A stretch of 64,000 nt of DNA, from the NCBI GenBank assembly GCA_964555735.1, contig CAZKTS010000288.1:1069-65068 (forward strand), in the 5' to 3' direction. This document shows, piece by piece, positions 8,516 through 53,011 of the stretch (position 1 is the stretch's first letter; each line of letters begins with the position of its first letter). The notes under the pieces were generated by a model. It saw only the letters and a list, made by a program, of their open reading frames with translations, ran no database searches and was not told the origin of the DNA. This DNA comes from an uncultured Bifidobacteriaceae bacterium (GTDB lineage: Bacteria > Actinomycetota > Acidimicrobiia > IMCC26256 > PALSA-555). Made by a program: the position numbers and the translations under genes.

Positions 8516-8518
8516 GAT
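8513..8518 (+). promoter_or_regulatory. class-L box variant TAGGAT, 7 nt before ATG 8526
   Basis: cggaTAGGATgggggtcATG. Confidence 0.35.
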
Positions 8519-8525
8519 GGGGGTC

Positions 8526-18156: not shown

Positions 18157-18362
18157 CCATCGCCGATGCGCCCGAGCTGCTGTGGTCGCTACGGTACGAC
18201 GCCGATCACGATGTGATGATGGTGGCCTATCACCACGACCCGACGGCGCCCGAGCACTGCCCATGGTGCGCCGGGGGGCGGTGCGTGCAGGAGGTGCGGT
18301 GGTGGCCGCGCCATGGGGCGGTGTGGCTGTGGATCCACGGCGCGGCCGGCGCCCTGAGCTAA
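18153..18362 (+). CDS. hypothetical small protein (69 aa; CPWC...C motif)
   Basis: ATGA overlap with the tape measure stop. Confidence 0.45.
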   Translation: MTIADAPELLWSLRYDADHDVMMVAYHHDPTAPEHCPWCAGGRCVQEVRWWPRHGAVWLWIHGAAGALS

Positions 18363-18480
18363 GGCGCCTAATCGCCGCCCTACGGCGCCCGGAGCCGCCA
18401 GGGCACCCTAGCCCCCATCCGGGGCCGCCGGACGCGCCCACGGGGCGATTAGGCGCCCTGGCGGGTTGCGCGGCGGTGGT
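18362..18480 (+). repeat. composite intergenic repeat, copy A
   Basis: Contains GGCGCCTAATCGCC (18363-18376) and its exact inverse GGCGATTAGGCGCC (18444-18457), the 17-mer GGGCACCCTAGCCCCCA (18401-18417) and a CCCTACGGCGCC variant of the core. Confidence 0.75.
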
Positions 18481-18489
18481 CGGCGCAGA

Positions 18490-23098: not shown

Positions 23099-24439
23099 AT
23101 GGCGATGGCCATGGCGAGTGCGCGAGAGTTGGCGGCGGCGTGTCAGGCGGTGCCGTGCACGGCGGTTCCTGTGCGGCTCGCGGACGGGCGCGTGGTGGAG
23201 TTCTGGGCGATGAACGACGCGGCCAAGGTCGCGGGCGTGCGGGCGATGGTATCGGCCAACCTCGCGCAGCAGGCGGCCGACCTGTGCGGGATGATGTTGC
23301 CGACGGCGCGCATGGTCGATCTGATCGTGGACGCGGCCACGATGCTGGTGGACCCGATGCCGATGCCGATCAGCGCGACGCCGGAGGCGGCGGTCACTCA
23401 TTCGCGCCGAGTGGATACGGCGGTCGGCGCGGCGCGCGGGCTCCTGAGCAACGTGGGCAAGTGGTGGGTGATCGATAACAAGCTGTCGATCGCGCACGGC
23501 CGGGCGATGAACTACGGGTGGCACGTCCGCGCGAACCCTTGGCGCGGGATCGCGACTCACCCGGCGGTCAGCGGGTCATGGCGTGTGATCCAGCCGGCGG
23601 CGACGGCGCACAACGGCCTGCACTACGACTACTCGCAGACGCTGCGGCTGGTGCGGCGCGAGTGCACGCTGGACGGAGAGCCGGCGGACCTCGCGCAGCT
23701 GCTGGCGGATCCGACCTGCGCGGCGGCGCTCACGACGTGCGGCCCGATGGTGATCACGCGCCAGCCGGGGGTGGAGCCTCCCGGGGTGGTGGTGCTGCCC
23801 GAGGTGGTGATCACGGCGAGCCCGCCGAAGCCGGTGGCGCCGAAGCCGATGGTGGCGGCGGTGGCGGCCGCGCGGGCGGCGATGGGCGACTTCGAGGACA
23901 TCCGCTTCGTGCCGACGCGGCAGCGCACGGCGGCGCAGCGCCGGCCGGACCAGATCCGGTGGATCGTGCTGCACACGGCCGAGACGGGCGAGGTGCCCAA
24001 CGCGGCGGAGAACCTCGCGGCGTGGGTGGCGGGGCCGCAGGCGCCGCAAGCGAGCTGGCACTTTGCGGTCGACTGCGACTCGATCGTGCAGAGCGTGCGG
24101 CTGTGTGATGTGGCGTGGCACGCGCCGGGCGCGAACCGAGATGGCATCGGGATCGAGCAGGCGGGGCGCGCAGCGCAGGGCGGCGTGCAGTGGGAGGACG
24201 ACTACTCGACGCGGATGCTGGAGCGCACGGCGCAGCTGGTGGCGCGGCTGTGCCGGCTGACGGGGATCCCGGTGGTGCGGCTCGGGCCTAGCGATCTGGT
24301 GCGTGCGGGGACGCGCGGGGTGTGCGGGCATCACGACGTGACGCTGGCGTTCATGAAGTCGACGCACACCGATCCGGGCGCGGCGTATCCGTGGGATCGA
24401 GTGCTCGGGCGGGTGCGTGATCTGCTGGCGGGTGGGTGA
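23099..24439 (+). CDS. N-acetylmuramoyl-L-alanine amidase (Amidase_2/AmpD-PGRP type) with a ~250-aa N-terminal domain of unknown function
   Basis: The C-terminal domain reads IRWIVLHTAETG ... WHFAVD ... AWHAPGANRDGIGIEQAG ... VCGHHDV..KSTHTDPG. The start could be ATG 23099, 23105 or 23111. Confidence 0.85.
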   Translation: MAMAMASARELAAACQAVPCTAVPVRLADGRVVEFWAMNDAAKVAGVRAMVSANLAQQAADLCGMMLPTARMVDLIVDAATMLVDPMPMPISATPEAAVTHSRRVDTAVGAARGLLSNVGKWWVIDNKLSIAHGRAMNYGWHVRANPWRGIATHPAVSGSWRVIQPAATAHNGLHYDYSQTLRLVRRECTLDGEPADLAQLLADPTCAAALTTCGPMVITRQPGVEPPGVVVLPEVVITASPPKPVAPKPMVAAVAAARAAMGDFEDIRFVPTRQRTAAQRRPDQIRWIVLHTAETGEVPNAAENLAAWVAGPQAPQASWHFAVDCDSIVQSVRLCDVAWHAPGANRDGIGIEQAGRAAQGGVQWEDDYSTRMLERTAQLVARLCRLTGIPVVRLGPSDLVRAGTRGVCGHHDVTLAFMKSTHTDPGAAYPWDRVLGRVRDLLAGG

Positions 24440-24744
24440 TGGCCGGAGTACCGCCGCCGCCCGATCTGCCACCGCCCGCGCCTGGCAGCTCGCCACTAGT
24501 CAGCGCGGAGGCGTCGTTCCCGCCATCGCCGAGCGCCGCGGACATCTGCGGCTTCAAGATCCCGCCGATCTTCGTGTTCAACATCTCGATCAACATTCCG
24601 TTTCCGTCGTTCGCGCTGCCGAACTTCCAATTTGCGCTGTCGCTGAAGTGCGACTTGAACGACCCGATCGGCGCCGAGGTGAGTTTCGGGGGCGGGCGGT
24701 CGCCGACGGGTGACACGATGGACCCGATCGAGCAGGACTTCTAA
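24436..24744 (+). CDS. hypothetical Pro-rich / beta-rich small baseplate-module protein (102 aa)
   Basis: Coupled (GTGATG) to the amidase gene. Locally lower GC. Confidence 0.45.
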   Translation: MMAGVPPPPDLPPPAPGSSPLVSAEASFPPSPSAADICGFKIPPIFVFNISINIPFPSFALPNFQFALSLKCDLNDPIGAEVSFGGGRSPTGDTMDPIEQDF

Positions 24745-24868
24745 GCGCCTCGCTGCCGCGCCTTTGGGCCCCGGGCACCCTAGCCCCCACGGGGCGCCCA
24801 AAAGCGCGCCTACGGGGCGCCCACGCGGGCTCCCGGGGTGCTCCGGGGCCGTGGGGTCACTGGGGCCC
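24745..24868 (+). repeat. composite intergenic repeat, copy B
   Basis: Contains the identical 17-mer GGGCACCCTAGCCCCCA (24773-24789), AAAGCGCGCCTACGGGG (24801-24817), and ACGGGGCGCCCA twice (24789-24800 and 24812-24823). Confidence 0.75.
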
Positions 24869-24878
24869 GTGATAGGCT
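24869..24878 (+). promoter_or_regulatory. class-L box GTGATAGGCT, 7 nt before GTG 24886
   Basis: ccGTGATAGGCTcctcggcGTG. Confidence 0.55.
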
Positions 24879-36693: not shown

Positions 36694-36709
36694 CGCCGGT
36701 GTGTGCGGT

Positions 36710-36719
36710 GCGCTATTCG
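36710..36719 (+). promoter_or_regulatory. class-E box GCGCTATTCG, 7 nt before ATG 36727
   Basis: gtGCGCTATTCGtgagtgcATG. Confidence 0.45.
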
Positions 36720-37049: not shown

Positions 37050-38561
37050 ATGATCAACACGTTCCTGGCTCACAGTGATTCGGCGGATGAGGCGGCACCG
37101 GCGTCGGCGCCGGTGAAGGCGGCGCGCGAGTGGTCGCCATACCAGGCGGCTGTGTTCGCGGACGTCGAGAGCGGCGAGGGCAACACGATCGTCTCGGCGC
37201 GCGCCGGAAGCGGCAAGACGTCGACGATCGTGGAGGCGCTGCGCTACTTGCCGCCCGGCAGCAAGGCGCTGCTGGTCGCCTTCAACAAGAATATCGCGCA
37301 GGAGCTGTCCACGCGCGCGCCCAAGGGTGTCGACGTGATGACGCTGCACAGCTACGGGCTGCGCGCCGTCAAGGCGCGCAACCGCGCCGCGGAGATCGAC
37401 AGCGACAAGTCGCGCAACATCGCACGCGAGCTGTACGGCGATGATGCGAAGTTCTTCGGGGCGGCCTTGCCCAAGGCGGTCGGGCTCGCGAAGAACTTGC
37501 TCCTCTCGACGGCGGAGGAGATCGACGCGGTGCTCGACGGGTACGGGGTCGACATTCCGGGGCCGGCGACGGCGGCGGCGCGGGCGAAGTTCGTGGCCGC
37601 GGTGGTCGCGGTGGTCGAGGCGAGCAAGCGCGACCTCGACACGATCGACTTCGACGACATGATCTGGCTGCCGGTGGTCCTGCGCTTGCCGACGCCGCGA
37701 TACGCGCGGGTCTTTGTGGACGAAACGCAAGACCTCAACCCCTGCCAGATCGAGCTGGTGCTCGGGTCGGTGGCGACCGGCGGCCGCGTGACGGCGGTGG
37801 GCGATGACCGGCAGGCGATCTACGGCTTCCGCGGCGCCGACCGCAACGCGATGGAGCGCGTCCGCGCCGCACTCGGCGCGAAGGTGCTGCCGCTGTCCAT
37901 CACGTATCGCTGCGCGACGGCGATCGTGAAGGTGGCGCAGGCGATCGTGCCCGACCTGGAGGCGGCGCCGGGTGCGGCGGAGGGTAGCGTGGCAGAGCTG
38001 CCGTGGGCGCAGGCGTCGCAGCGGCTGGAGGCGGGCGACATGGTGATCTCGCGCACGAACGCGCCGCTGGTGCGGGAGCTGCTGCGCGCGGTGCGCGCGG
38101 GGCGCCGGGCGACGATGCTCGGGCGCGACTTCGGCCAGGCGTTGACCGGGCTGATTCGCAAGAGCAAGGCGGCGACGATCGCGCAGCTCGACGCCTACAT
38201 CGACCAGTGGGAGGCGCGCGAGGTGGCGCGGCTGGACGCGAAGGGGCGCGACACGGGCGCGGTGCGCGATCGCGCCGACACGCTGCGCGCGCTGGCCGAG
38301 GGGGCGACCTCGCCCGAGCAGGTGATCTCGACGATCGAGAGGTACTTCGCCGAGAACGCGGCGAAGGACGCGGTCGTGTTCTCCTCGACTCACAAGGCGA
38401 AGGGCTTGGAGGCGCACCGGGTGGTGCTCTTCGCCGACACGTACCGGCCGGGTCGCTCGGTCGAGGAGGATAACCTCTGGTATGTCGCGGTGACGCGCGC
38501 CAAGGTGGAGCTGGTGCTGGCGTACGGCGCCGGGCAGGACGACGAGCAGGGGGCGGCGTGA
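37050..38561 (+). CDS. UvrD/PcrA/Rep-family SF1 helicase (503 aa)
   Basis: Motifs ARAGSGKTST (I), VFVDETQDLNP (II), VGDDRQAIYGFRGA (III), ITYRC (IV), STHKAKGLEAHRVVLF (V), YVAVTRAKVELVL (VI). A canonical promoter lies upstream. Confidence 0.9.
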   Translation: MINTFLAHSDSADEAAPASAPVKAAREWSPYQAAVFADVESGEGNTIVSARAGSGKTSTIVEALRYLPPGSKALLVAFNKNIAQELSTRAPKGVDVMTLHSYGLRAVKARNRAAEIDSDKSRNIARELYGDDAKFFGAALPKAVGLAKNLLLSTAEEIDAVLDGYGVDIPGPATAAARAKFVAAVVAVVEASKRDLDTIDFDDMIWLPVVLRLPTPRYARVFVDETQDLNPCQIELVLGSVATGGRVTAVGDDRQAIYGFRGADRNAMERVRAALGAKVLPLSITYRCATAIVKVAQAIVPDLEAAPGAAEGSVAELPWAQASQRLEAGDMVISRTNAPLVRELLRAVRAGRRATMLGRDFGQALTGLIRKSKAATIAQLDAYIDQWEAREVARLDAKGRDTGAVRDRADTLRALAEGATSPEQVISTIERYFAENAAKDAVVFSSTHKAKGLEAHRVVLFADTYRPGRSVEEDNLWYVAVTRAKVELVLAYGAGQDDEQGAA

Positions 38562-39154
38562 TGCCGCCCCGGGTCCGCACTCGCAAGGGGTCGCATCCGG
38601 TCGGGGAGATGATCTGGTCGTACGGGTCGAATCTCTACACGCCGCAGGCGCTGAGCCGGTGCCCGAGCGCGGTGCGGGTGGGTCCGGCGGCGCTGCACGA
38701 CCACGCGATCGAGTTCGTCGGGTACTCGGCGGGCTGGGGCGGCGGGGTCGCGACGGTGATCCCGGCGCACGGGTCGCAGGTCGACGGCGAGCTGATGATC
38801 GTGCGGGAGAGCGATCTGGCGCGGCTCGATGCGTACGAGGGGGCGCCGGACGTCTACCAGCGGATCAAGGTGGAGGTGGTGGCGACCGCGACCGACGGCG
38901 CGCCGTACCGCGTGCCGTGCTGGACGTATCGGCACACTCGCGGGGTGAGTGCGCGGCGCGACCCGAGCGCGGCCTACATCGCGCGCATCGCGGCGGGATA
39001 CGGGCGACTCGGCTTCGATCTGACGCCGGTGATCGCGGCGATGGGCCGCGCGAATGCTGCGCGGTGGACACAGACTCAGCTGACGTGGGAGCGAGAGCAT
39101 GCGACAAATCGAGATCCGAATCCTGGCCCTGGACCCGGCCGCCGTAGTCGGTGA
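38558..39154 (+). CDS. gamma-glutamylcyclotransferase (GGCT/AIG2-like fold) with ~65-aa C-terminal extension
   Basis: WSYGSNL...RCPSA ... WGGGVATVIP ... VDGELM ... LARLDAYEG ... YQRIKVEV ... PCWTY is collinear with the human GGCT pattern (YGSNL, PSA, WHGGIATI, LDEQEG catalytic Glu). Start is GTG 38558, ATG 38561 or ATG 38609. Confidence 0.85.
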   Translation: MMPPRVRTRKGSHPVGEMIWSYGSNLYTPQALSRCPSAVRVGPAALHDHAIEFVGYSAGWGGGVATVIPAHGSQVDGELMIVRESDLARLDAYEGAPDVYQRIKVEVVATATDGAPYRVPCWTYRHTRGVSARRDPSAAYIARIAAGYGRLGFDLTPVIAAMGRANAARWTQTQLTWEREHATNRDPNPGPGPGRRSR

Positions 39155-39398
39155 GGTGCGCGAGCTGGCGCTAGTGCGCGGCTGGCAGTGGGGCGGCGCG
39201 CGAGACAATCCGATCGGCGCGACGGCGGGCACGGTGGCGCCGGAGACGGCCGACCAGATCCGTGCGCTGCGGGCGCAGGGGCTCTCGATCGGGGCCATCG
39301 TGGCGACGCTGAATGAGCAGGGCGTGACGGGCCCGCGCGGCGGGCGGTGGTGGCCGCGGACGGTACACCTCGCGCTGCGGCGGCTGGGGCTCTCGTGA
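39099..39398 (+). CDS. small DNA-binding protein resembling the 'Recombinase' wHTH domain of serine recombinases (no catalytic domain)
   Basis: IRALRAQGLSIGAIVATLNEQGVTGPRGGRWWPRTVHLALRR matches the i..l...G.s...Ia..Ln..g..t.rGg.W....V..il pattern. The alternative start is GTG 39156. Confidence 0.55.
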   Translation: MRQIEIRILALDPAAVVGEVRELALVRGWQWGGARDNPIGATAGTVAPETADQIRALRAQGLSIGAIVATLNEQGVTGPRGGRWWPRTVHLALRRLGLS

Positions 39399-40393
39399 CT
39401 CGCGTGGTGACGGGCGGCCCGGAGCTGCGCGCGGCGCTGCAATCGACCACGGCGGAGGCGCTGGCGCTCGAATCTGAGCCGATCGCTGAGGTGCAGCGGT
39501 GCGTGGCCGACGTCATGCGCCTGCTGGCCGACGTGCCAATCGCGCCCGAGGTGCCATCGGCGGCGGTCGTGCAAGCGGTCATCGACTGGCTGTGGGAGCG
39601 GCGGGTGGTCGTGCGCGCGCCGACGGGCGCGACGCTGGCGGCGGCGGCGATCGTGGCCGAGTCGCGGGACATCCAGCTGCGATGGCACTGGGGCGTCCGG
39701 TGGGTGGCGGCGGCGTATCCGACGGTCGACCTCGCCACGCCGCAGTTCGTCGCGGCGCTGCTGTGCTCGGGGCACGACCCCGAGCAGGAGCTGCGAGCGC
39801 CGTGGCCGGCGTTCCTGCTGCGCATACCGCCCGGGACGGGCCTGCCGGCTGAGCTGATCATGGTGGCGCGCGTGACCGACCCGGACGAAGGGCTGGCGAT
39901 CGTGGCGCTCGGCCGGAGCTATTCGTGGTGGCAGCGCGTGACGGTGGCGCAGCTGTGCGCGCCGGACTTCGCGCTCGACCAGCCCGACACGGCGACGGAG
40001 GTGCCGATGGATGCGGCCGACGTGCGGGTGCAGACCGCGCTGCGTGCGCTGGTGCGCAGCGTGCTCGCGTGGGTGGCCGACCCGGAGCGGGTGCAGGCGG
40101 CGCGTGTGGGGCCATCGAGCCCGAAGGCTGAGCGGGCGCGCGCGGCTGCGCGTCGTGGTCTTCCGCTCGATCGGTACGTGCTGACGGCTCCGATCCGAAT
40201 CGATGCGCGCCCGGTGGTAGCGGCGTACCTCGCCGGCGAGAGGGCGCGGCCTGGTGTGCGGTCGCTCGTGCGCGGGTTCTGGCGGCGGCAGGCGTGCGGT
40301 GCTGGGCGCGTGGATCGGGTGTGGCGGTGGATCGAGCCGCACTGGCGCGGCGGCGAAGACCTCCCGATCGCGGTGCGGGTGCATCGGCCGTGA
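39395..40393 (+). CDS. hypothetical protein (332 aa)
   Basis: GTGA overlap. High GC3. No motif recognised. Confidence 0.55.
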   Translation: MTRVVTGGPELRAALQSTTAEALALESEPIAEVQRCVADVMRLLADVPIAPEVPSAAVVQAVIDWLWERRVVVRAPTGATLAAAAIVAESRDIQLRWHWGVRWVAAAYPTVDLATPQFVAALLCSGHDPEQELRAPWPAFLLRIPPGTGLPAELIMVARVTDPDEGLAIVALGRSYSWWQRVTVAQLCAPDFALDQPDTATEVPMDAADVRVQTALRALVRSVLAWVADPERVQAARVGPSSPKAERARAAARRGLPLDRYVLTAPIRIDARPVVAAYLAGERARPGVRSLVRGFWRRQACGAGRVDRVWRWIEPHWRGGEDLPIAVRVHRP

Positions 40394-40566
40394 GGCGGGC
40401 GCGGCACCCGACGATCGAGCCGATGACGGTCCAGATCCGTACCCGGGCCGAGGTCGGCGACAACGACCGCACGGTCGAGCTGCTCACACGCCTGGCGAGG
40501 AGCCGAGGGTGGGAGCTGACCGTCACGCGGCGGCACCCGCGCCGGGCGCCCCGCCAGCCCGCCTAA
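40390..40566 (+). CDS. hypothetical small protein (58 aa)
   Basis: GTGA overlap (alternative start ATG 40423). High GC3. Last ORF before the non-coding region. Confidence 0.35.
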   Translation: MRRARHPTIEPMTVQIRTRAEVGDNDRTVELLTRLARSRGWELTVTRRHPRRAPRQPA

Positions 40567-40790
40567 TCGCCGCGCTGGCGCGCCTTCGAGTGGTCGCCCA
40601 CCCCTGACCCGCCCGCCCGGGCAAAGCGCGCCTACGGGGCTCCTACGGGCCCCGGGCGCCAATGGGCCTAATCGCCTCGCTGGCGCGTCGGGCGAGGCTG
40701 GGGCACCTAGCACCCGTCCGGCGCCCAAAAGCGCGCCTACGGGGCGCCTGTGCGGCCCGGCGGGCGGTCTTGGCCCTGGGGCGAGGGGAA
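40558..40790 (+). repeat. composite intergenic repeat, copy C (double)
   Basis: Contains CCTAATCGCC.CGCTGGCGCG twice (~40563 and ~40667), AAAGCGCGCCTACGGGG twice (40623-40639 and 40728-40744) and GGGCACCTAGCACCCG (40701-40716). Confidence 0.75.
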
Positions 40791-40793
40791 GTG

Positions 40794-40864
40794 CCGCCCG
40801 CGTACCCGTCGGTCGTGCGGTCGAGGGGATGGGCGCTCCGACATCGGGCCGGGTACGCGGGCGG
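40794..40864. repeat. 14-bp perfect inverted repeat (CCGCCCGCGTACCC / GGGTACGCGGGCGG), 43-nt spacer
   Basis: Arms at 40794-40807 and 40851-40864. Confidence 0.75.
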
Positions 40865-40947
40865 CGAGGTGCAGCCTACCACGGGCGGCCGCGCTCGATC
40901 GGGGTCGGGGCTTGGCCGGTCCTTGCCGGTCTTCGACAAGCCTCGGC

Positions 40948-40969
40948 GAGCGCATGTCCGCATGCGCTC
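40948..40969. repeat. 9-bp stem / 4-nt loop hairpin GAGCGCATG-tccg-CATGCGCTC
   Basis: Perfect palindrome arms. Confidence 0.75.
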
Positions 40970-41070
40970 GCGCGCGCCGCCCGGCGGGCGGCGCAATCGC
41001 GTCACGGCCGGCGCGGATCGGCCTACGGCCGATAAGCCTCTTCGATGATTCCCTGAGGAGAATCTCTGAC

Positions 41071-41128
41071 GCGCACGGGCGCGCTTGCGCGCACGTACGC
41101 ATGTACCCGCGTGGGCGCGCCCGTGCGC
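41071..41128. repeat. 14-bp perfect inverted repeat (GCGCACGGGCGCGC / GCGCGCCCGTGCGC), 30-nt spacer
   Basis: Arms at 41071-41084 and 41115-41128, followed by (CGCACA)n-like repeats. Confidence 0.75.
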
Positions 41129-41154
41129 ACACGCACACGCACGCGCGGGCGCGC

Positions 41155-41183
41155 GAGGCGGCGGCACCGGCGGCGCTCGGGGC
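41155..41183 (+). repeat. 29-bp perfect direct repeat, copy 1
   Basis: GAGGCGGCGGCACCGGCGGCGCTCGGGGC. Confidence 0.8.
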
Positions 41184-41190
41184 GGCCGCG

Positions 41191-41210
41191 GTGTCTACCC
41201 GAGTAGACAC
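41191..41210. repeat. 8-bp stem / 4-nt loop palindrome GTGTCTAC-ccga-GTAGACAC
   Basis: Perfect arms. Unusually A/T-containing for this DNA. Confidence 0.75.
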
Positions 41211-41344
41211 CGATCGGCGGGGCTGGGGGGAACTGGTGCAACGTGGCGGGATCGCGAGGCGAATCGGCATCGCCGCTCGACGCGCATGCACTAGCCTCGC
41301 GGTGTATGCGGTATGTGAGTGAGCCGAACTAGCGGCCCGCGCTA

Positions 41345-41373
41345 GAGGCGGCGGCACCGGCGGCGCTCGGGGC
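41345..41373 (+). repeat. 29-bp perfect direct repeat, copy 2
   Basis: Identical 29-mer 190 bp downstream of copy 1, and 34 nt before the class-E box at 41407. Confidence 0.8.
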
Positions 41374-41406
41374 TGGGGCTGAATTAGCGGGGCCGGCCGC
41401 AGTGGC

Positions 41407-41416
41407 GCGCTATTCG
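41407..41416 (+). promoter_or_regulatory. class-E box GCGCTATTCG, 7 nt before ATG 41424 (SF2 helicase)
   Basis: ggcGCGCTATTCGgggtgggATG. Confidence 0.5.
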
Positions 41417-41423
41417 GGGTGGG

Positions 41424-42890
41424 ATGGCTGTGCGGGTGCGTGCGACGCTGGAGCTAGCCCTGGCTGACGTGCCGGCGGAGCTGGTGGACGCGCTGCGCGC
41501 GGAGTTCACGGTCGCGAACCCGGTTCGCGCGAAGCTGGAGGCGATGGGGCGGCGCAACCGTGCGATGGCGTGGCGCGCGGCGAAGACGCCGGCTGAGCTG
41601 CGGTTCTGGCGCGAGGCGGGGGGTGTGCTGCATCTACCGCGGGGCGCGGTGTCGCGAGTGCGGCGGGTGGCGGAGGCGCACGGGGTGCGGCTGACGTGGC
41701 GCGATGAGCGGGAGGCGGGCGGGGACTTCTACGCGCGTGCGATCGCGCATCGCCCGGCGAGTCGCGAGGCGGATGGTGGGGCGCTGCGGTGGTATCAGAC
41801 CGAGGCGATTGCGCGGGCGATGGATCGGCAGTGCGGGATCATTCGCGCGCCGACGGGGTCGGGCAAGACGACGATCGCGCTGGGGCTGGTGGCGGCGGTT
41901 CGGGTGCCTACGCTGGTCGTGGTGTGGTCGGGCGCGCTATTCGACCAGTGGGTGCAGCGACTGCGCGATGAGTTGGGGCTGCGCGCCGATGAGATTGGGC
42001 GATACGGTGCGGGGCATGATCAGGTGCGGCCGGTGACGGTGGCGATGCAACAGAAGCTCTGGCGCGGCATGTCGCGGGACTTCGTCGCGCGGTGGGGGAT
42101 GGTGGTGATCGATGAGGTGCAGCGCGCGCCGGCGCGCACGTTCGCCGAGGTGGTGGGCCAGATCCCGGCGAAGTACCGGATCGGGATCAGCGCAGACGAG
42201 ACGCGACCCGATGGGCTGGAGGCGGTGACGTACGACGTGTTCGGGCCGCTGGTGTACGAGGTGTCGCGCGATGACTTGATCGCGGACGGCAGCGTGCGCG
42301 ACGTGGAGATCCGGGTGGTGCCGACGGAGTTTCGCGCGGACTGGTATCGCGATCAGCTAGCGCGGCGGCAGATCCCAGACATCAAGCGGTTGCTCGATGA
42401 GATGGAGGCGGACGACGCGCGCAACGAGCTAGTGGCCGAGGTGATGCAGGGCGAGGTGCGCGAGGGCCGGCAGGTGGCGATGGTGGCGTCGCGGGTCGCG
42501 ATCTGTCGGCGGGTAGATGCGGCGTTGGCGGCGCGGCGGGTGGGGTCGGGCGTGGCGGTGGGCGAGGACGGCGCTGCGGCGGGCGAGGCGATCGCGCGGT
42601 TGAAGTCGGGCGAGCTGCGCGCGTTGTGCGCGAGCATCCAGCTATTCGGAACGGGCGTGGACGTGCCGGCGTTGTCGCGCGGCGTGCTGGCGACTCCGAT
42701 CGGGTCGAATCGCCAGCTGTTCGGCCAGGTGCGCGGGCGGCTGTCGCGACCTGGTGAGCCGGCGGTGCTCTATGTGCTGTGGGATCGACACGTCTACAGC
42801 GCGAACATGCTGCGGCGGCTGGAGGCGTGGAATCGGCGCGTGTTGGTGCGCGTCGGTGGTGGCTGGGTCGATGCGAGTGAGGTGGAGTAA
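41424..42890 (+). CDS. SF2 DEAD/DEAH-box (DExH) helicase, type III restriction Res-like/XPB-like
   Basis: WYQTEAI (Q), RAPTGSGKTT (I), VIDEVQRAP (II), SADETR (III), GTGVDVP (V), QVRGRLSR (VI). Confidence 0.85.
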   Translation: MAVRVRATLELALADVPAELVDALRAEFTVANPVRAKLEAMGRRNRAMAWRAAKTPAELRFWREAGGVLHLPRGAVSRVRRVAEAHGVRLTWRDEREAGGDFYARAIAHRPASREADGGALRWYQTEAIARAMDRQCGIIRAPTGSGKTTIALGLVAAVRVPTLVVVWSGALFDQWVQRLRDELGLRADEIGRYGAGHDQVRPVTVAMQQKLWRGMSRDFVARWGMVVIDEVQRAPARTFAEVVGQIPAKYRIGISADETRPDGLEAVTYDVFGPLVYEVSRDDLIADGSVRDVEIRVVPTEFRADWYRDQLARRQIPDIKRLLDEMEADDARNELVAEVMQGEVREGRQVAMVASRVAICRRVDAALAARRVGSGVAVGEDGAAAGEAIARLKSGELRALCASIQLFGTGVDVPALSRGVLATPIGSNRQLFGQVRGRLSRPGEPAVLYVLWDRHVYSANMLRRLEAWNRRVLVRVGGGWVDASEVE

Positions 42891-43138
42891 TGGCGAAGGT
42901 CCGTGTGGTGGTGACGCGAGGTGAAGAGGTTTACGCGCCGGTGAGTTATCACTCTTTCCGAGTGGGGCCGCTCTCGGTGACGTTCGAGTGCGAGTCGGAC
43001 ATGGTCGGTCCGATGGCGGAGGAGTGGACGGAGGCGCTTCGCCGGCTGAGCGACACGGTCTATGCCGATGAGCTGCGGCTGCATCTGGAGCGGGTGAAGA
43101 CTGCAGCGGCGGCGGCGCGTGCGAGCCAGCGCGCATGA
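42890..43138 (+). CDS. hypothetical protein (82 aa)
   Basis: TAATG overlap with the helicase stop. High GC3. Confidence 0.5.
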   Translation: MAKVRVVVTRGEEVYAPVSYHSFRVGPLSVTFECESDMVGPMAEEWTEALRRLSDTVYADELRLHLERVKTAAAAARASQRA

Positions 43139-43626: not shown

Positions 43627-43817
43627 GTCGCAAGGACCGAGTGATGTTGGCGGCGTGGGTGTCACCCGAGGTGCGCGAGGTCGCGCGGGTGGAAGCCGCG
43701 GCGGCGTGTATGGAGTTCTCGCGGTGGGTCGAGTGGGCGGTGAGGCGCGCATTCGCTGAGGAGGTTTCGCGGCAGGTGTTGCGGGATGACGCGGAGAAGG
43801 ACGCGGCGGGTCGATGA
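43623..43817 (+). CDS. ribbon-helix-helix (CopG/Arc-like) protein (64 aa)
   Basis: GTGA overlap. KDRVMLAAWVSPEVREVARVEAAAACMEFSRWVEWAVRRAF shows a beta-alpha-alpha pattern. Confidence 0.55.
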   Translation: MSRKDRVMLAAWVSPEVREVARVEAAAACMEFSRWVEWAVRRAFAEEVSRQVLRDDAEKDAAGR

Positions 43818-43848
43818 CGTGCAAGGAGTGCCACGGGTGCCGACTGGT
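43744..43848 (+). repeat. direct repeat copy 1 (~105 bp) flanking the DUF2829 gene
   Basis: 62 nt (43744-43805) are identical to 44177-44238. The next ~43 nt differ at about 6 positions. Confidence 0.85.
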
Positions 43849-43894
43849 GACGTGCAAGTTCTCACAGACAGAGGAGAGGGTTAATCATGGCTGA
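43814..43894 (+). pseudogene. truncated 5' copy (26 codons) of the zinc-ribbon gene at 44247
   Basis: MTCKECHGCRLV then diverges, compared with MMCKECHGCRLVGWSG at 44247. It lies in copy 1 of the ~105-bp direct repeat. Confidence 0.5.
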
Positions 43895-44162
43895 TTTCTC
43901 ATGGGCGTTGGCGGAGCTGAGGGCAGGGCGGCTGGTAGCTCGGGAGGGGTGGAACGGGAAGGGCCAGTGGCTCGCGCTCCCGAGGGCGTATCCGCGCGGC
44001 ATTCCGATCGACAAGAACACGGCTGAGGCGACGGGGATCCCCGAGGGGACGGTCTGCAGGTTCTTGCCGTACATCATCGTGCGGACGGTCGATGGGGCTT
44101 TCGTGCCGTGGCAGGCGTCGCAGACGGACGTGATGGCTGAGGACTGGGCGGCGCCCCCATGA
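43887..44162 (+). CDS. DUF2829-family protein (Tad2-like candidate anti-Thoeris nucleotide sponge)
   Basis: FSWALAELRAGRLVAREGWNGKGQWL ... LPYIIVRTVDGAFVPWQASQTDVMAEDW matches the DUF2829 hallmarks (A...lk.Gk.v.R.gW.gkg ... pW..SqtDllAeDW). GGAGAGG RBS. GC is lower than in the neighbours. Confidence 0.85.
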   Translation: MADFSWALAELRAGRLVAREGWNGKGQWLALPRAYPRGIPIDKNTAEATGIPEGTVCRFLPYIIVRTVDGAFVPWQASQTDVMAEDWAAPP

Positions 44163-44176
44163 GGCGCGTTCCGCCC

Positions 44177-44281
44177 GGCGCGCATTCGCTGAGGAGGTTT
44201 CGCGGCAGGTGTTGCGGGATGACGCGGAGAAGGACGCGCGCGGCCGATGATGTGTAAGGAGTGCCACGGGTGCCGACTGGT
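44177..44281 (+). repeat. direct repeat copy 2 (~105 bp) flanking the DUF2829 gene
   Basis: Duplicate of the RHH gene's 3' end plus the zinc-ribbon gene's 5' end. Confidence 0.85.
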
Positions 44282-48502: not shown

Positions 48503-48934
48503 ATGGAAAACACGCGGACGCTGCTGAAGGCGGCGCACAAGGAGCTGGCGGGGCTGATGGGTGGGCGCGCGCGCATGGCGCGGCGCGAGCGGCTGCGGGT
48601 GGCGCTGGAGGCGGGCGTCATGGTGCGGACGCGCAAGGGTGCCGAGGTGGCGATCGCGCTGTCGCCGATCGACAGCGTGATCCACGCGATCGAGCTGATC
48701 AAGCTCGGCGAGGCGGTGCCGGCCGCGGCGGTGCAGCGGCTGCGGGCGGCCTTCGGCGCGGCGCCCGGGCGGCCGCAGGTGGCCGAGGCCGTGCGGCGGG
48801 CGATGGACGGCGCGGGCGTCGCGGCGGCCGCGCGGGATGCGTTCCTGCAGGCGATCGATCTGGACGTGGAGACGGCCGAGTCTCCGCTGGCGGCGGGGCT
48901 GGACGCGGCGCGGCGCCGGCGGGGGCGCGCGTGA
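48503..48934 (+). CDS. hypothetical protein (143 aa)
   Basis: AAGGAG RBS at 48491-48496. A GCGCTATTAG box lies 40 nt upstream. Confidence 0.5.
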   Translation: MENTRTLLKAAHKELAGLMGGRARMARRERLRVALEAGVMVRTRKGAEVAIALSPIDSVIHAIELIKLGEAVPAAAVQRLRAAFGAAPGRPQVAEAVRRAMDGAGVAAAARDAFLQAIDLDVETAESPLAAGLDAARRRRGRA

Positions 48935-49434
48935 CCTCGTCGGAGGTCGCGCGGGTGGCGCGGGCGATTCACCGGGCCTGGCGGTTGCCGGCCGCGGTGG
49001 AGGTCGAGGACATCGAGCAGGAGCTGCGCCTGCAGTACGTGCTCGGCGGCCGCGCGTACGACGCGAGCCGCGGAGTGCCGCGGGAGGCGTTCTGCTGGTG
49101 GTACGCACGGCGGCAGGCCGAGCGGTGGTGTCACACGCAGCGCTCGGCGCTGCGGCGCTCGGGGCGCGCCCCGAGCCGGCTGCCGGTCCTGCTGGACGAC
49201 GCGATCGATCCCGGGGTCGAGCCGTGCGCCGAGCGGGTGGCCGAGCTGGCCAGCGCGGTGAGGCGGGCGCGCCGCCTCTGCCGCTCGGCGGTGGACGCCA
49301 GGGCGCTGGAGGCGCTGGAGGCGTCAGCGCTCGACACGTCGGCGGCGGTGGAGTCGCTGGCGGGCGAGCTGACGCGCCGCCAGGCTCGCGCGGCCATGGG
49401 GCGCGTGACGCGCGCGCTGAGGGCGGCCGCGTGA
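48931..49434 (+). CDS. ECF-like sigma factor candidate (regions 2 and 4)
   Basis: EDIEQELRLQYVLGGRAYD....PREAFCWWYARRQAERW is region-2-like (eDl.Qe..l.......yd.....f..Wl..ia.n). The C-terminus ..AVESLAGELTRRQARAAMGRVTRALRAAA is region-4-like. GTGA overlap. Confidence 0.5.
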   Translation: MTSSEVARVARAIHRAWRLPAAVEVEDIEQELRLQYVLGGRAYDASRGVPREAFCWWYARRQAERWCHTQRSALRRSGRAPSRLPVLLDDAIDPGVEPCAERVAELASAVRRARRLCRSAVDARALEALEASALDTSAAVESLAGELTRRQARAAMGRVTRALRAAA

Positions 49435-50444
49435 AGCACCGGGTCGATCTGACCAAGGCACGCCAGGAGTGCGTGGTGGCGGCGCTGAAGCGCCACGGGC
49501 TGGCCCCTCCGGGGGCTGGCTCGTGGGCGCTCGCGCGGCAGGTGTCGACGCTGGTGGCCTACTATCGCGCGCACACACCGCGCGCGCGCATCGCGGACTG
49601 CGAGACGTGCGGGGGCGAGAGCGACAGCGGCGAAGCGGCGTGCCCGTACTGCGGCGACGCGGACGGCGAAGCGTCGGCCGAGGTGGAGGCGGTGGAGCCG
49701 GTGGCGCCGGTGGTGGGCGGCCTGCAGGTCGTACCCGCGGCCGGGTCGATGGTGGCGGCGGCGGAGCCGCCGAGCGGGTCGACGGAGCGTGACCTCGATC
49801 GGGCCGTGGCGAAGGTGCTCCGGCTGCGCCGCGACGCGGCGAGCAGCATCTGGGAGCTGGCGGTTGCGGTGCGGGAGGTGAGCGAGTCGTCGATCTGGAA
49901 GCTGCGGCGCGATGAGACGGGCGCGCCGAAGTGGACCAGCTGGGGGCGGTTCGCCGTGGAGGAGCTGGGCGTGTCGCCGGCCTACAGCTACCAGCTGATC
50001 GAGGTGGCCAAGACCTTCACGCGGGCGGAGGTCGACGAAGTCGGGATCAAGAAGCTGATCGTCTCGCTGCGCGTCTCTCACCACGACCGCGGCGACATCT
50101 TGGCGGCGGCTCGCGCGGGTGAGTCGGTGTCCGAGCTGGAGGCGCGCGTGGAGACGGTGCTCGATGGCGGCGAGGCGGGTGGTGACGATGGCGGCGCTGG
50201 CGGTGGCGGCGAGGCGGGTGCGACGCCGCGGCCGCGTCTCGCGCGTGGCGTCACGGCAGCCATGCTGATGCGACGGGTCACGATCCCGCTGTACCGCCCT
50301 GGGTCCATGGCGCGGGCTCGCCGGCTGGCCGACACGCCGCGCGGTGAGGAGCGGCTGGTCAACGGCGTCAAGCAGGTATTTGTGGTTGACGTCGACTCCG
50401 ACGGCGGGCTGGTGCTGATCGTGGAGCGGCTCCGCGAGACATGA
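49431..50444 (+). CDS. DNA-binding protein: zinc ribbon + ParB/KorB-like HTH region
   Basis: CETCGG...CPYCGD, followed by IWELAVAVREV...WTSWGRFAVEELGVSPAYSYQLIEVAKTF...ESVSELEARVE. Confidence 0.4.
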   Translation: MKHRVDLTKARQECVVAALKRHGLAPPGAGSWALARQVSTLVAYYRAHTPRARIADCETCGGESDSGEAACPYCGDADGEASAEVEAVEPVAPVVGGLQVVPAAGSMVAAAEPPSGSTERDLDRAVAKVLRLRRDAASSIWELAVAVREVSESSIWKLRRDETGAPKWTSWGRFAVEELGVSPAYSYQLIEVAKTFTRAEVDEVGIKKLIVSLRVSHHDRGDILAAARAGESVSELEARVETVLDGGEAGGDDGGAGGGGEAGATPRPRLARGVTAAMLMRRVTIPLYRPGSMARARRLADTPRGEERLVNGVKQVFVVDVDSDGGLVLIVERLRET

Positions 50445-52981
50445 TCGAGGCGCTCAACGCCTGGTCAGAGCATGACGGGCGGGTGTACTACGCCGCGCGC
50501 GATGCGGACGGCCGGGTACGAGTGCACGACGCGGGGCGGGTCGTGTACTCGTACCTCCGCGGTGACAGTGACCCTGAGCTGATTCGCGAGATCGAGCGGT
50601 CGCGGGTGCTGCGTGCGGTGGAGCGCGCAGGCGACTGGTGGCGCCTGCACTGGTCCGCGCCGTGGGCGCGCGATGCGGCGTGCGGGCCTGACGGGTGGTT
50701 CGCGTCGAAGCGAGTGCCGACGTTCGAGGCTGATCTGCCGGCGGTGCGGCAGTGGGCGATCGAGCGCGACGTGCAGGTGCAGCGGCCGCGCCTCTGCTAT
50801 TTCGACATCGAGACGGACGCGCGCGCTGGGATCGCCAACAAGGAGCGCATGCGCATCCTGTGCTGGACGGTGCAGAGCGCCGACGGTGAGCGCGTGCAGA
50901 GCGGCATGCTGGAGGCTGACACGGATGCGGCGGAGCGCGACTTGCTGCGCGCGTTGTGGCGCGAGTTCGATCGGTACGATCAGGTCGCGGCGTGGTACGG
51001 CGACGGCTTCGACTTCCCGGTGGTGTTTGCGCGCAGTAAGCGCGCGGGTATCTCGGTCGACGCGCGGCGGTGGCTGTGGCTGGACCACCTTGAGGTGTTC
51101 CGCCGGATGAATATCTCGTCGTCTGAGAGTGGCGAGGAGAAGCAGTCGCTGGCGCTGCAGGCGATTGCGATGGCGGTGCTCGGTGAGGGCAAGCTGCCGG
51201 GGTTCGGGTACGCCGAGATTTACCGCGCGTGGGCGGCGGGCGGCGATGACCGCGATCGGCTGCTCGCGTACAACGTGCGCGACGTCGACTTGATGCGGCG
51301 GGTTGAGGACCGGACGGGTTACATCGAACTGCTCTTCACGCTGTGCGCGACCACGGGCGTCTTCCCTGATACTCGCGGGATCCGGCCGATGCCGCAGGTC
51401 GAGACGTACGTGCAGCGGCTGGCCAACGCGCGCGGCGACCGCCTGCCGACGCAGTATCGGGGTGGGGATGAGAGCAAGTATCGCGGCGCGTATGTGATGG
51501 AGCCGCGGCGTACGGGGCTGATCCGTGACCGCGTGCACGTCTGCGACTTCGGCTCGATGTATCCGAGCATTGTGCAGACCTGGAATATCTCGCCGGAGAT
51601 GATCGTGGAGAAGCCGCCCGAGCCGGTGTTCCCCGCGTATCTGTCGCACCTTGCGGCTGAGTGGAAGCCGCCGCCGCGGCCGGCTGAGTACGCCGAGGCG
51701 CCGAAGACGCGCGTGTGGTTCCGCCAGGCGGAGCGCGGGCTGCTACCGCGCGCGCTCGATGCGCTGGGCGCGCTGCGTGCGCAGTGGCAGGCGCGCAAGG
51801 CGGAGCTGCCGCCTAACACGCCGGAGTGGCGTGACGCGGACGCGCGAGCGACCGCGTACAAGATCAACGCCAACAGTTTTCCGGGTGTGATCGGCGCGTC
51901 GGTGTCGCGGCTCTATTCGCGCGAGGCGGCCGAGAGCGTGAGCACAACGGGGGCGTGGCTGCTGGAGCAGGTCGACCGTGCGGCGCGCGAGCACGCCGGG
52001 CTCGATCCGTTCTACGGCGACACGGATTCCAGCATGGTCGCTGGCTGTAGTGATGAGACTTTCGCGGCGTTCGTCGCGTGGTGCAACGGCGATCTGCTGC
52101 CGCGGTTGGCGCGCGAGCAAGGTTGCGCGGGCGCGTGCACGCTGAAGCTGGCGTACGAAAAGGCGTTCGAGCGGATGCTCTTGCTGAGCGCGAAGCGGTA
52201 CATCGCGCGGCTGGCGCACTACAAGGGGCAGGCGCCGACGGCGGCGACGAAGCCGGAGATCAAGGGGATCGAATACAAGCGCGGCGACTCGCTGCGCCTC
52301 ACGCGGCAGATGCAGGCGATCGTGATCGACCTCATGATGGGCGGCGGGCTGGTGCGACCGCGCCAGGAGCGGTGCGAAGACGCTGAGGAGACGTATGTGG
52401 CGCTAGTCGAGGCGTGGCGCGACCTCGTGCTGACGGGCCCGCTGGAGCTGGCCGACGTGGTGCGGTCGCAGCGGCTGACGCAGCCGCTGAAGGCGTACGC
52501 GGGCAAGGTCAAGCTCGATGGGACCGAGAGCGGCGGCATGCCGCATGTCCGGGTGGCGCGGGTGCTGGCTGAGCGCGGTGAGGCGATCGGGGTCGGGGCG
52601 CGCGTGGAGTACGTGGTGGTCGATGGCTCGGTGAGCCCGGCGGAGGTGATCCCGGCGTCGGACTGGACCGGCGAGTGCGACCGCTTCGCGCTGTGGGAGT
52701 CGGCGGTCTGGCCGCCGACCCGGCGATTGCTGGAGTCGGCGTTTCCGGCGGGCCCGTGGGCGCGGTACGACCGGGTCCGGCCGAGCAAGCGCCGGCCGGC
52801 GGCGCACGCCGACAAGCTGCCGCTGTTCGAGGCGCCCACGCGCCGCGCCAAGGCGCCGGCGCGCCCGGCCGCCCCAATGCCCCAGGCGGCGCCCGAAAGC
52901 GCGCCTACGGGGCTCCCAGGCGGCCAGATCGGGCTCTTCGGGGCGGCGACCGCTGCTCGGCGCGGCAGGAGGCGCGGGTGA
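50441..52981 (+). CDS. family B DNA polymerase with 3'-5' exonuclease domain and C-terminal clamp-binding-like motif
   Basis: Exo I YFDIETD, Exo II LAYNVRDVDL, motif A CDFGSMYPSIV, motif B KINANSFPGV, motif C YGDTDS. The C-terminal QIGLF lies at nt 52925-52939. Confidence 0.95.
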   Translation: MIEALNAWSEHDGRVYYAARDADGRVRVHDAGRVVYSYLRGDSDPELIREIERSRVLRAVERAGDWWRLHWSAPWARDAACGPDGWFASKRVPTFEADLPAVRQWAIERDVQVQRPRLCYFDIETDARAGIANKERMRILCWTVQSADGERVQSGMLEADTDAAERDLLRALWREFDRYDQVAAWYGDGFDFPVVFARSKRAGISVDARRWLWLDHLEVFRRMNISSSESGEEKQSLALQAIAMAVLGEGKLPGFGYAEIYRAWAAGGDDRDRLLAYNVRDVDLMRRVEDRTGYIELLFTLCATTGVFPDTRGIRPMPQVETYVQRLANARGDRLPTQYRGGDESKYRGAYVMEPRRTGLIRDRVHVCDFGSMYPSIVQTWNISPEMIVEKPPEPVFPAYLSHLAAEWKPPPRPAEYAEAPKTRVWFRQAERGLLPRALDALGALRAQWQARKAELPPNTPEWRDADARATAYKINANSFPGVIGASVSRLYSREAAESVSTTGAWLLEQVDRAAREHAGLDPFYGDTDSSMVAGCSDETFAAFVAWCNGDLLPRLAREQGCAGACTLKLAYEKAFERMLLLSAKRYIARLAHYKGQAPTAATKPEIKGIEYKRGDSLRLTRQMQAIVIDLMMGGGLVRPRQERCEDAEETYVALVEAWRDLVLTGPLELADVVRSQRLTQPLKAYAGKVKLDGTESGGMPHVRVARVLAERGEAIGVGARVEYVVVDGSVSPAEVIPASDWTGECDRFALWESAVWPPTRRLLESAFPAGPWARYDRVRPSKRRPAAHADKLPLFEAPTRRAKAPARPAAPMPQAAPESAPTGLPGGQIGLFGAATAARRGRRRG
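52899..52912 (+). repeat. 14-mer core GCGCGCCTACGGGG inside the DNA polymerase 3' end
   Basis: Exact copy. The flanks (GAAAGCGCGCCTACGGGGCTCC) match the first core of copy C. It encodes PESAPTGLPG just before QIGLF. Confidence 0.7.
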
Positions 52982-53001: not shown

Positions 53002-53011
53002 GCGCTATTGG
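53002..53011 (+). promoter_or_regulatory. class-E box GCGCTATTGG, 7 nt before ATG 53019
   Basis: tcGCGCTATTGGgggtggcATG. Confidence 0.5.

Follow-up and report, generated by a model that had tools for sequence, protein, structure and literature searches.

Stoperators, known from the Cluster A mycobacteriophages L5, Bxb1 and TipsytheTRex, number more than 20 per genome and are bound by a known monomeric immunity repressor; they provide a precedent for asymmetric sites that are locked to the direction of transcription and halt elongation (PMC9283540). GTAG-tagged repetitive extragenic palindromes (REPs) and REPINs are repeats in which a tag lies beside a GC-rich stem (PMC3733652, PMC2817692). 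The early-promoter stem-loop (PeSL) cassettes of T4-like phages, which are promoter-terminator cassettes, have been proposed both as regulators and as recombination points (PMC2839356, PMC4122927). In Cluster K mycobacteriophages, extended start-associated sequences (ESAS) are 17-bp imperfect inverted repeats located directly 5' of the start-associated sequence (SAS) (PMC3203893). The results presented here concern a dispersed repeat in 64,000 nucleotides (nt) of contig CAZKTS010000288.1, hereafter the window, by which the whole stretch analysed is meant. The source genome is an uncultivated high-GC tailed phage, myovirus-like and known from metagenomes alone. In this phage, at least ten copies of a gene-end cassette of about 105 nt, all in the same orientation, make up a lineage-specific family, and an 18-nt core within the cassette is constrained as primary sequence. 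We regard the family as a local form of repeat types that phages and bacteria are known to carry.

A co-oriented family of repeat units with a constrained core

An earlier note on this DNA, made from the letters alone, reported five + strand copies of the 14-mer GCGCGCCTACGGGG, more than chance would give. An exact search bore this out: the five copies are all on the + strand (Table 1), 0.00 are expected, and no match occurred in any of 100 dinucleotide-preserving shuffles. Two of the five lie within genes, that at 8584 in a probable gene (8517-8825) and that at 52899 in the C-terminal tail of the family-B DNA polymerase gene, polB. Every module that the note described as shared among its copies A, B and C was also recovered. 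CCTAATCGCC occurs at 18367, 40562 and 40667 and is part of the longer CCTAATCGCC.CGCTGGCGCG at the last two positions, GGGCACCCTAGCCCCCA occurs at 18401 and 24773, and CCCAAAAGCGCGCC at 24797 and 40724.

A hidden Markov model (HMM) was built from five units with a pairwise identity of 53-67%, and the window was extended to 75.4 kb by two flanking Logan contigs (window coordinates -9566 to 65786). The HMM recovered copies A, B and C, the last as two units, C1 and C2. In the 75.4 kb it identified seven full units of about 105 nt, two partial units (E1 and E2) and a truncated copy, Z, at positions 1-14 of Logan contig L221, where the contig ends; all are on the + strand, and the partial copies number three or four in total. 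Two of the full units, at L221 5262-5484 (E about 1e-6), were not part of the training set. The dispersed family is therefore real, as the note proposed, but larger than the set it described, since it includes the variant core ACGCGCCCACGGGG of E2 and A and additional copies just outside the window.

Table 1. Repeat units and the inverted repeat following C2 (window coordinates)
Feature	Position	Strand	Core	Observations
E1, partial unit	8571-8604	+	8584-8597, exact GCGCGCCTACGGGG	HMM E=9e-4; reads GAPTG
E2, partial unit	8612-8661	+	8641-8654, ACGCGCCCACGGGG	HMM E=1.7e-3; 26.4 bits; reads DAPTG
A, full unit	18360-18471	+	18432-18445, ACGCGCCCACGGGG	HMM E=2e-20
B, full unit	24734-24845	+	24804-24817, exact GCGCGCCTACGGGG	HMM E=3e-23
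C1, full unit	40556-40661	+	40626-40639, exact GCGCGCCTACGGGG	HMM E=8e-20
C2, full unit	40660-40772	+	40731-40744, exact GCGCGCCTACGGGG	HMM E=1e-25
D, full unit	52829-52940	+	52899-52912, exact GCGCGCCTACGGGG	HMM E=2e-19
Perfect 16-bp inverted repeat, 41-nt loop	40793-40865 (arms 40793-40808 and 40850-40865)			directly after C2

The alignment of the seven full units resolves three conserved modules: a left module (gcgcCtAa.CGCC.CgCT...GCGcC, given also as GCGCC-TAA-TCGCC-GCGCTGGCGCGCC), a C-rich middle module (CC.agccCcc; GGGCACCCTAGCCCCC) and an asymmetric core (aaagCGcGCC.ACGGGGCgccta). The near-invariant 18 nt of the core are AAAGCGCGCCYACGGGGC. Core columns 81-90 have a majority fraction of 0.96, compared with 0.50-0.84 for the remaining 10-column blocks inside the units. 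Every copy bears a CTAC or CCAC tag (GTAG or GTGG on the opposite strand). When the 75 kb were scanned with a core weight matrix, ten + strand sites scored 18.7-30.8 bits, and no further + strand site scored 10 bits or more. Five weak sites (10.7-15.5 bits) were found on the minus strand, where about 1.2 are expected per strand. The left module of three units can itself be read as an inverted, degenerate core: that of C1 (40568-40587) agrees at 15 of 19 positions and scores 10.7 bits, that of B (24746-24765) scores 6.1 bits and that of C2 scores 2.0 bits, against a background 99th percentile of 3.7.

Gene ends, translated copies and related phages

The units are tied to the ends of genes. The start of unit A coincides with the TAA that stops gene 18153-18362; 9 nt past this codon, the CCTAATCGCC module of the unit contains another TAA in frame. 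The left-module TAA is itself the stop codon of the upstream gene in B (24742-24744; gene 24436-24744) and in C1 (40564-40566; small gene 40390-40566, with a product of 58 residues). C2 follows C1 head to tail with a period of 105 nt and opens an 857-nt non-coding region upstream of a superfamily 2 (SF2) helicase gene (41424). The junctions that hold units are methyltransferase and packaging, tape measure and baseplate, lysis and baseplate, accessory module and replication, and polB and recombination.

Promoter-like boxes lie 27-90 nt downstream of four of the seven loci. From the end of Z it is 27 nt to TTGACA-N16-TATACT, with an ATG 6 nt further on, and Z does not overlap the -35 hexamer. 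A and B are 43 and 54 nt ahead of GATAGGCT boxes; downstream of A the sequence is TTGCGC-N18-TAGGCT (GATAGGCT at 18488) and then ATG at 18517, and the box downstream of B is at 24871. For D the distance is 89 nt, to the GCGCTATTGG box (53002-53011) that precedes gene 53019. No box follows the methyltransferase and E copies, and units accompany only two of the seven exact GATAGGCT boxes.

The boxes were observed elsewhere as well. TTGACA-N16-TATACT is a consensus sigma-70 promoter (L221 41-77), about 9.5 kb upstream of the window start; an ATG only 6 nt after it points to leaderless transcripts and to a host where such transcripts are common. GATAGGCT lies 6-8 nt before the ATG of late (structural) genes (12255, 29551, 30480, 18488, 24871 and 9246), with degenerate forms before 434, 8517 and 23099, and may serve as a signal for translation or, in the case of leaderless mRNAs, as a -10 element. 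A second box, GCGC[TC]ATT[CG]G, precedes the ATGs of early genes and replication genes by 7-10 nt (window 36709-36718, 41406-41415, 53002-53011 and ~48460; related contigs L238 ~1235-1255 and L239 ~7098-7117), and in related phages a box of this type also stands ahead of the helicase ATG (GCGCCATTGTGGGGGTATG, GCGCCATTGGAGGGGCATG).

Several copies are translated. D encodes the linker of the C-terminal tail of polB (50441-52981; ...APESAPTGLPGGQIGLFG..., ...APESAPTGLPGG) directly before QIGLFG, the clamp-binding-like motif that ends polymerase tails throughout the clade. The family-B polymerases of this clade (P0122-P0160; window 52940-52981) have disordered tails of about 50-70 residues with a Q-x-G/A-L-F motif, which is QIGLF in the window phage and QLGLF or QGALF in relatives. 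E1 and E2, with cores 57 nt apart, are located in the disordered Pro/Ala-rich N-terminal linker of the 102-residue product of the probable gene 8517-8825, all homologues of which have a variable Pro/Ala-rich N-terminal linker of similar length. In an N6/N4 DNA methyltransferase the last ~90 residues consist of two units, the core being read as RGRKRAHGAPS twice, and the reading frame runs into an ATGA overlap with the next gene. Homologues of this enzyme end at query residue ~457-465 of 554; its tail is thus a lineage-specific extension. When the translated copies were examined for insertion in the manner of Rickettsia palindromic elements (RPEs), the segment was extra relative to homologues in the methyltransferase, but not in the 102-residue protein or in polB, the tails of which are of similar length across the clade. 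The cassette is tolerated in disordered coding termini. Its core is read as APTG in polB and the 102-residue protein and as KRAHGAP in the methyltransferase tail. Four units leave this DNA untranslated and other copies translate it in two frames, which argues against a family defined at the protein level. Coding by frameshift or read-through was rejected, as the frame relations differ among A, B and C.

The core is conserved at one syntenic site, the polB tail, in a related lineage. In a P0127-type phage, the polB of which is 55% identical, the tail reads APESAPTG at the same position as copy D, and its DNA, GCGCCCGAAAGCGCCCCCACGGGGC, matches D at 23 of 25 nt. Both differences are synonymous third positions, and both are also present in the non-coding copy Z. 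Another relative has GTCGAAAGCGCGGCAGCGGGGC at the same place in the polB tail. A search of IMG/VR for the P0127-type phage returned distant polymerases only. In the P0127-type phage, a gene for an Acb2/Tad1-hairpin protein (an anti-CBASS/anti-Thoeris sponge) is located directly upstream of polB (L227 193-513).

The dispersed family was not found in eight relatives (L010, L012, L225, L226, L228, L229, L238 and L239), nor in the more distant L002-L004. Upstream of the helicase, unit-like matches in relatives are suggestive by position only and not significant (E=1.3-13; L226, E=7.8; L225, E=1.3, on the opposite strand; L010, by eye). A sequence at this place, CCCCCCCTACCCCCCC, was observed at L226 9741 and 9878, L228 318, L238 1054, L239 6938 and L010 9461, in shorter form in L010 and the second L226 copy, and is often followed by (C)AATGG; it is non-coding except in L010, where it lies within a called gene. 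CCCCCCCTACCCCCCC aligns with the middle module GGGCACCCTAGCCCCC and in L226 is followed by GAAAGCGCGCC...GGGCGCC. The window has no match to it with up to one mismatch. L002 and L003 (polB about 41% identical) have a dispersed repeat of their own, the 18-bp perfect palindrome CCGCAACACGT(G/A)TTGCGG, at L002 1339, 4015, 8630, 12051, 15839 and 17475 and at L003 2225, 6368, 7644 and 10220. These palindromes precede TAnnnT-like (-10-like) boxes near start codons, and one copy lies in frame past the polB tail.

The phage itself has a GC content of about 71% and a positive GC skew throughout the window, and essentially all of the genes are on the + strand. The window encodes a portal, a major head protein, a tail sheath, UvrD-type, SF2 and DnaB-like helicases, a primase and the family-B DNA polymerase, a gene set that indicates a contractile-tailed phage. 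No near-identical phage was found in INPHARED by megablast, and the portal protein gave only matches of 24-28% identity, with no near relative among GenBank phages. The helicase and the polymerase have no homologue closer than 50-58% identity among 5.8 billion proteins. Many Logan assemblies (runs SRR130765xx) contain the identical sequence, as does an NCBI contig of 83,345 nt. No strain variation was observed, as 12 of 12 Logan contigs of the phage are 100% identical to the window. No tRNA genes were found in the window.

Just upstream of the C units, a 99-residue open reading frame (ORF; 39099-39398) with a fragmentary serine-recombinase 'Recombinase' domain (PF07508, E=4e-5) and an HTH_62 match adjoins a 332-residue ORF (39395-40393), and the pair may be a remnant or split recombinase. 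The rest of the non-coding region after C2 (40793-41423) is densely structured. Besides the perfect 16-bp inverted repeat of Table 1, it contains inverted repeats of GC-alternating sequence, clustered at 41070-41154, the palindrome GGTGTCTAC-CCGA-GTAGACACC (41190-41211) and a direct repeat of 35 nt (41149-41183 and 41339-41373), and it is a candidate origin or control region of the replication module. Further on, a 105-nt direct repeat, 94% identical between its copies (43744-43848 and 44177-44281), flanks a Tad2-like anti-Thoeris gene (43887-44162; Pfam PF11195, E=2.6e-22). Five Logan contigs all stop at 43773, within the first copy, and gene and repeats together look like a duplicated or mobile anti-defence cassette.

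Possible roles of the core

It is possible, and this is the reading we tentatively adopt with less than even confidence, that the core serves, in one fixed orientation, as a sequence-specific recognition site carried by a duplicated gene-end cassette, and that it acts at the boundaries of transcription units. The asymmetry of the core, its constant co-direction with transcription and the gene-end position of the units ahead of boxes make action at such boundaries probable. A phage or host protein would read the core as primary sequence, on DNA or possibly on the transcript. The target of the core would then be RNA polymerase that is elongating or terminating at the 3' end of a transcription unit, and the effect, much as with a stoperator, would be to halt or pause read-through, or to insulate against it, before the next promoter is reached. 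The cassette would have spread by duplication or recombination to several module junctions and, on landing in or becoming the 3' or 5' end of an ORF, would be translated as a disordered Pro/Ala/Gly-rich linker. The earlier note offered a regulator-binding array, a terminator or antiterminator RNA module and a miniature mobile element; judged from sequence, the first appears to fit best, in that the asymmetric core is kept while the flanks drift, the copies are co-directional with transcription and boxes lie downstream.

A number of points weigh against a boundary site. No core-binding protein was identified. The spacing to the downstream boxes is variable (27-90 nt), the C copies are about 680 nt from the next gene, and the methyltransferase copies precede a translationally coupled gene (ATGA overlap) without a promoter box. 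Stoperators are bare 13-bp sites and not 105-nt cassettes. Discovery through an exact 14-mer inflates the apparent conservation of the core; A and the copies M1-M3, which were found without the exact 14-mer, keep 12-13 of the 14 core positions. Moreover, as both changes in the P0127-type phage are synonymous, constraint at that site may act on the protein.

A doubtful alternative is that the unit is a transcribed RNA structure of the 3' untranslated region, either a REP-like hairpin or long stem-loop that terminates without a U-tract, or a structure for protection or processing of the mRNA 3' end. The units do lie at stop codons or 9 nt past them on the sense strand, the opposite strand of the core, CCCC-GTAG/GTGG-GCGCGC, has the tag-plus-GC-stem layout of GTAG-tagged REPs (PMC3733652), and canonical terminators are absent from the genome as scanned. 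No hairpin with a U-tract was found in 38000-43000; elsewhere in the window terminator counts equal the shuffle expectation, and none is at a unit. Pairing is also available. The ends of B, C1 and C2 can pair at 14-15 of 19 positions, with two changes giving a G:U wobble, and B, C2, D, E1 and M2 have a GGCGC/GCGCC stem of 5 bp, of which E2 has a part. A is enclosed by a different stem, a perfect 14-bp inverted repeat (GGCGCCTAATCGCC at 18363-18376 and GGCGATTAGGCGCC at 18444-18457), and a perfect 16-bp hairpin follows C2. The latter is the sole perfect inverted repeat of at least 16 bp among the 25 longest listed for the window. C1 and C2 are bracketed by a further, imperfect inverted repeat of about 41 nt, with 40438-40478 as its left arm and the loop region of the 16-bp hairpin (40809-40857) as its right arm. 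These inverted repeats around the cores differ in sequence; a structural role for them, though it lacks statistical support, is conceivable.

The fold itself does not behave as a conserved structure. Copies folded as RNA were no more stable than dinucleotide shuffles (z -1.9 to +0.6). When the candidate hairpin, with an outer CCCC/GGGG and an inner GGCGC/GCGCC helix, was tested on eleven aligned copies, the paired share of cells was 70.5% (shuffle mean 71.9%) and no pair was compensatory. Every departure breaks a pair from the 5' side; the core, which forms the 3' arm, is constant, and A, C1, M1 and M3 have lost the 5' arm while the core is intact. Rfam 15 gave no match at the gathering score and only three unrelated weak ones at E<=5, none at the units. 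The conserved feature is thus the primary sequence and not a fold, and the terminator or antiterminator module of the earlier note is left unsupported.

No more probable is a selfish or neutral repeat, that is, a REPIN-like, RPE-like or miniature inverted-repeat transposable element (MITE)-like unit or a recombination 'linker' cassette without a regulatory role. Its expansion is lineage-specific, the eight related loci being without the dispersed family; the two units that make up the ~90 extra C-terminal residues of the methyltransferase, copies translated in two frames and the location of units at module junctions all agree with such an element. REPs are known to insert in replication and repair genes and to supply stop codons (PMC3733652), and PeSL cassettes mediate shuffling in T4-like phages (PMC2839356, PMC4122927). 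However, the units share no terminal inverted repeats or target-site duplications, the 14-bp inverted repeat being confined to A and those of B and C differing in sequence. No transposase or REP-associated tyrosine transposase (RAYT; Y1_Tnp) was found among the genes with Pfam families checked. REPs and MITEs occur in both orientations, whereas these units occur in one, and the polB and 102-residue-protein copies are not insertions relative to homologues. A neutral repeat at about 60% identity should not retain an intact 18-nt core. The miniature mobile element of the earlier note therefore holds only in part, for the translated copies and the lineage-specific methyltransferase tail.

Less probable again is a phage-borne REP- or REPIN-like element with a dedicated reader protein. 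Such an element would punctuate or silence unidirectional transcription genome-wide, as a system of stoperator type beyond the Cluster A mycobacteriophages, and would be old enough for the clamp-binding tail of the polymerase to be both coding sequence and cis-site in at least two lineages.

A promoter for a phage-encoded sigma-like factor is improbable. The core is asymmetric, conserved over 18 nt, points with transcription and lies upstream of genes, and a sigma-like gene occurs two genes before polB in relatives. Small proteins with a Sigma70_r2 match, weak in the relative's homologue, are encoded there at L225 16367-16942, L226 18005-18553 and L229 8467-9051. The 167-residue product of window gene 48931-49434 is 51% identical to the L229 protein over 79 residues and is, from this resemblance, a possible phage sigma factor. 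However, Pfam gave no sigma domain, nor any other match, for the window's own protein. The core also has no two-block -35/-10 layout at 16-18 nt spacing, the next start codon is 23 to 680 nt away, and separate boxes (GATAGGCT, GCGCTATTSG and TTGACA/TATACT) already stand between core and start codons.

It is more improbable still that the repeat reflects a peptide motif, (E/Q)SAPTG, of disordered tails, the non-coding copies having decayed after duplication of the polB 3' end. The window phage and P0127 share APESAPTG in their polB tails, where the two nt differences are synonymous, APQGAPAPTG occurs in the tail of P0128, and the APTG frame is open through all of the non-coding units. Open frames are, however, expected by chance at 75-80% GC. 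The methyltransferase tail uses another frame, the C units lack a start codon in the APTG frame, and the frame relative to the upstream gene is -1 in A and +1 in B and C1. In decayed duplicates the core would not have outlasted the flanks.

The least credible account, a host-chromosome REP acquired by the phage, draws on an exact 17-mer match in Candidatus Poribacteria and founders on the GC content and hairpin design of those repeats and on the scan of high-GC genomes. The Genome Taxonomy Database (GTDB), with one genome for each of 185,579 species, was scanned for the 17-mer AAAGCGCGCCTACGGGG, which gave 84 loci. No high-GC genome among these representatives had more than one match. About 36 matches, on both strands, fall in 31 DNA stretches of at least five Candidatus Poribacteria metagenome-assembled genomes (40-57% GC), where the 17-mer is the right arm and tag of a hairpin, GCGCGCTT-ac-AAAGCGCGC-CTAC-GGGG, with the layout of GTAG-tagged REPs (PMC3733652). 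This GTAG-tagged, REP-like hairpin family sometimes forms tandem or inverted pairs (L014, L017, L023-L026, L028, L031-L033, L035-L037, L039, L045, L048, L053, L056-L059, L061, L062, L064, L065, L071, L073, L075, L078, L085 and L090). The AAA lies within the stem in Poribacteria but within the loop in the phage, and the left arms differ, so the two hairpins are not homologous; at 40-57% GC against 71% in the phage, Poribacteria are also implausible hosts. We take the match as a sign of the REP-like composition of the phage core, a tag and a GC stem, and not as evidence of origin. The phage-type 21-mer gave one match in the metagenomes of the Joint Genome Institute (JGI), unrelated and of low GC.

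The search of host and related-phage sequences that the earlier note had called for thus ended in two ways: the motif is REP-like only in low-GC Poribacteria, and the polB-tail site is syntenic in a related phage. Neither a ubiquitous host REP nor an outright lack of syntenic conservation, either of which the note would have counted against the family, was found. Matches in IMG/VR were rejected as chance or coding: a single 17-mer match in a coding region was judged chance, and the 14-mer gave at least 120 single matches, mostly RAYG-coding. The one match of the degenerate 18-mer, GGGCAAAGCGCGCCCACGGGGCTCC at L240 10648-10665 (IMGVR_UViG_3300018073_000234), was also judged chance (~1-9 expected by our own estimate); it lies, on an unrelated viral contig, in a small signal-peptide ORF reading GQSAPTGLP, with flanks that resemble C1. 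A diversity-generating retroelement was rejected, with no reverse transcriptase found and copy differences not confined to adenines, as were a CRISPR-repeat mimic, to which no resemblance was found, and attP (phage attachment) arm sites, for which only the fragmentary recombinase-domain ORF is nearby.

Dispersed, orientation-locked repeats are among the few handles on the organisation of transcription in uncultivated phages. If the core blocks read-through or otherwise signals a boundary, the stoperator principle would extend to an unrelated high-GC, myovirus-like lineage, and the core would be a concrete site for finding its regulator. The presence of one DNA element in non-coding and coding contexts, in two frames and in the linker before a clamp-binding motif, bears on how repeats seed protein termini. 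If the unit is merely a duplicated junction cassette, it is an instance of ordinary phage mosaicism.

Comparison with known repeat systems

The core and stoperators are alike in being short, asymmetric and multi-copy, in occupying short intergenic spaces at gene ends and in keeping primary sequence over symmetry. In both, orientation tracks transcription; here the + strand carries all 10 sites and essentially all genes. Unlike stoperators, the phage core is embedded in a diverged 105-nt cassette, is present in about 10 copies per 75 kb and is translated in some copies, and neither a repressor nor lysogeny has been established. Stoperators also double as operators at the early promoter, whereas Z, which lies beside a consensus promoter, does not overlap it.

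GTAG-tagged REPs and REPINs resemble the family in the GTAG or GTGG tag on the opposite strand, which in some of the phage copies stands beside a GC-rich stem (PMC3733652, PMC2817692). REPs occur within a few nt of ORF 3' ends and can supply the stop codon, as do B and C1, with A 9 nt past a stop, and translated copies are found inside replication genes, here polB and the DNA methyltransferase. The three units with an inverted degenerate core about 40 nt away, in head-to-head style, resemble REP dimers. However, REPs number hundreds per chromosome, occur in both orientations, have covarying stems and are linked to RAYTs. The phage family is confined to one strand and about 10 copies, with a stem that lacks covariation and is missing in four copies; no RAYT/Y1_Tnp was found among the precomputed or searched Pfam matches for the subset of genes checked.

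The SAS and ESAS of Cluster K mycobacteriophages are likewise phage-specific, orientation-locked intergenic repeats of unknown function (PMC3203893). GATAGGCT resembles the SAS, GGGATAGGAGCCC, and two units are upstream of GATAGGCT as ESAS is upstream of SAS. The units differ from ESAS in their length of 105 nt, in having no simple inverted repeat, in their distance of 43-54 nt from the boxes and in accompanying only 2 of at least 7 boxes. PeSL cassettes are also small composite intergenic repeats at the borders of variable blocks in a myovirus genome (PMC2839356, PMC4122927). They contain a recognisable early promoter and a stem-loop and flank indels between close relatives, whereas the promoter-like boxes here are downstream of the units and not inside, a stem-loop is unsupported and the nearest relatives are 50-58% identical (protein).

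RPEs are reportedly palindromic and insert at internal surface loops, whereas the translated copies of the phage unit are confined to terminal disordered linkers. The likeness lies in repeat DNA that is tolerated within ORFs and translated (PMC3733652), as in the methyltransferase extension of two units. The family is not ESAS, not an intrinsic terminator and not a MITE, and it is PeSL-like only in part. Its proposed mode of action comes closest to that of a stoperator array and its appearance to that of a GTAG-REP dimer, and it fits neither class.

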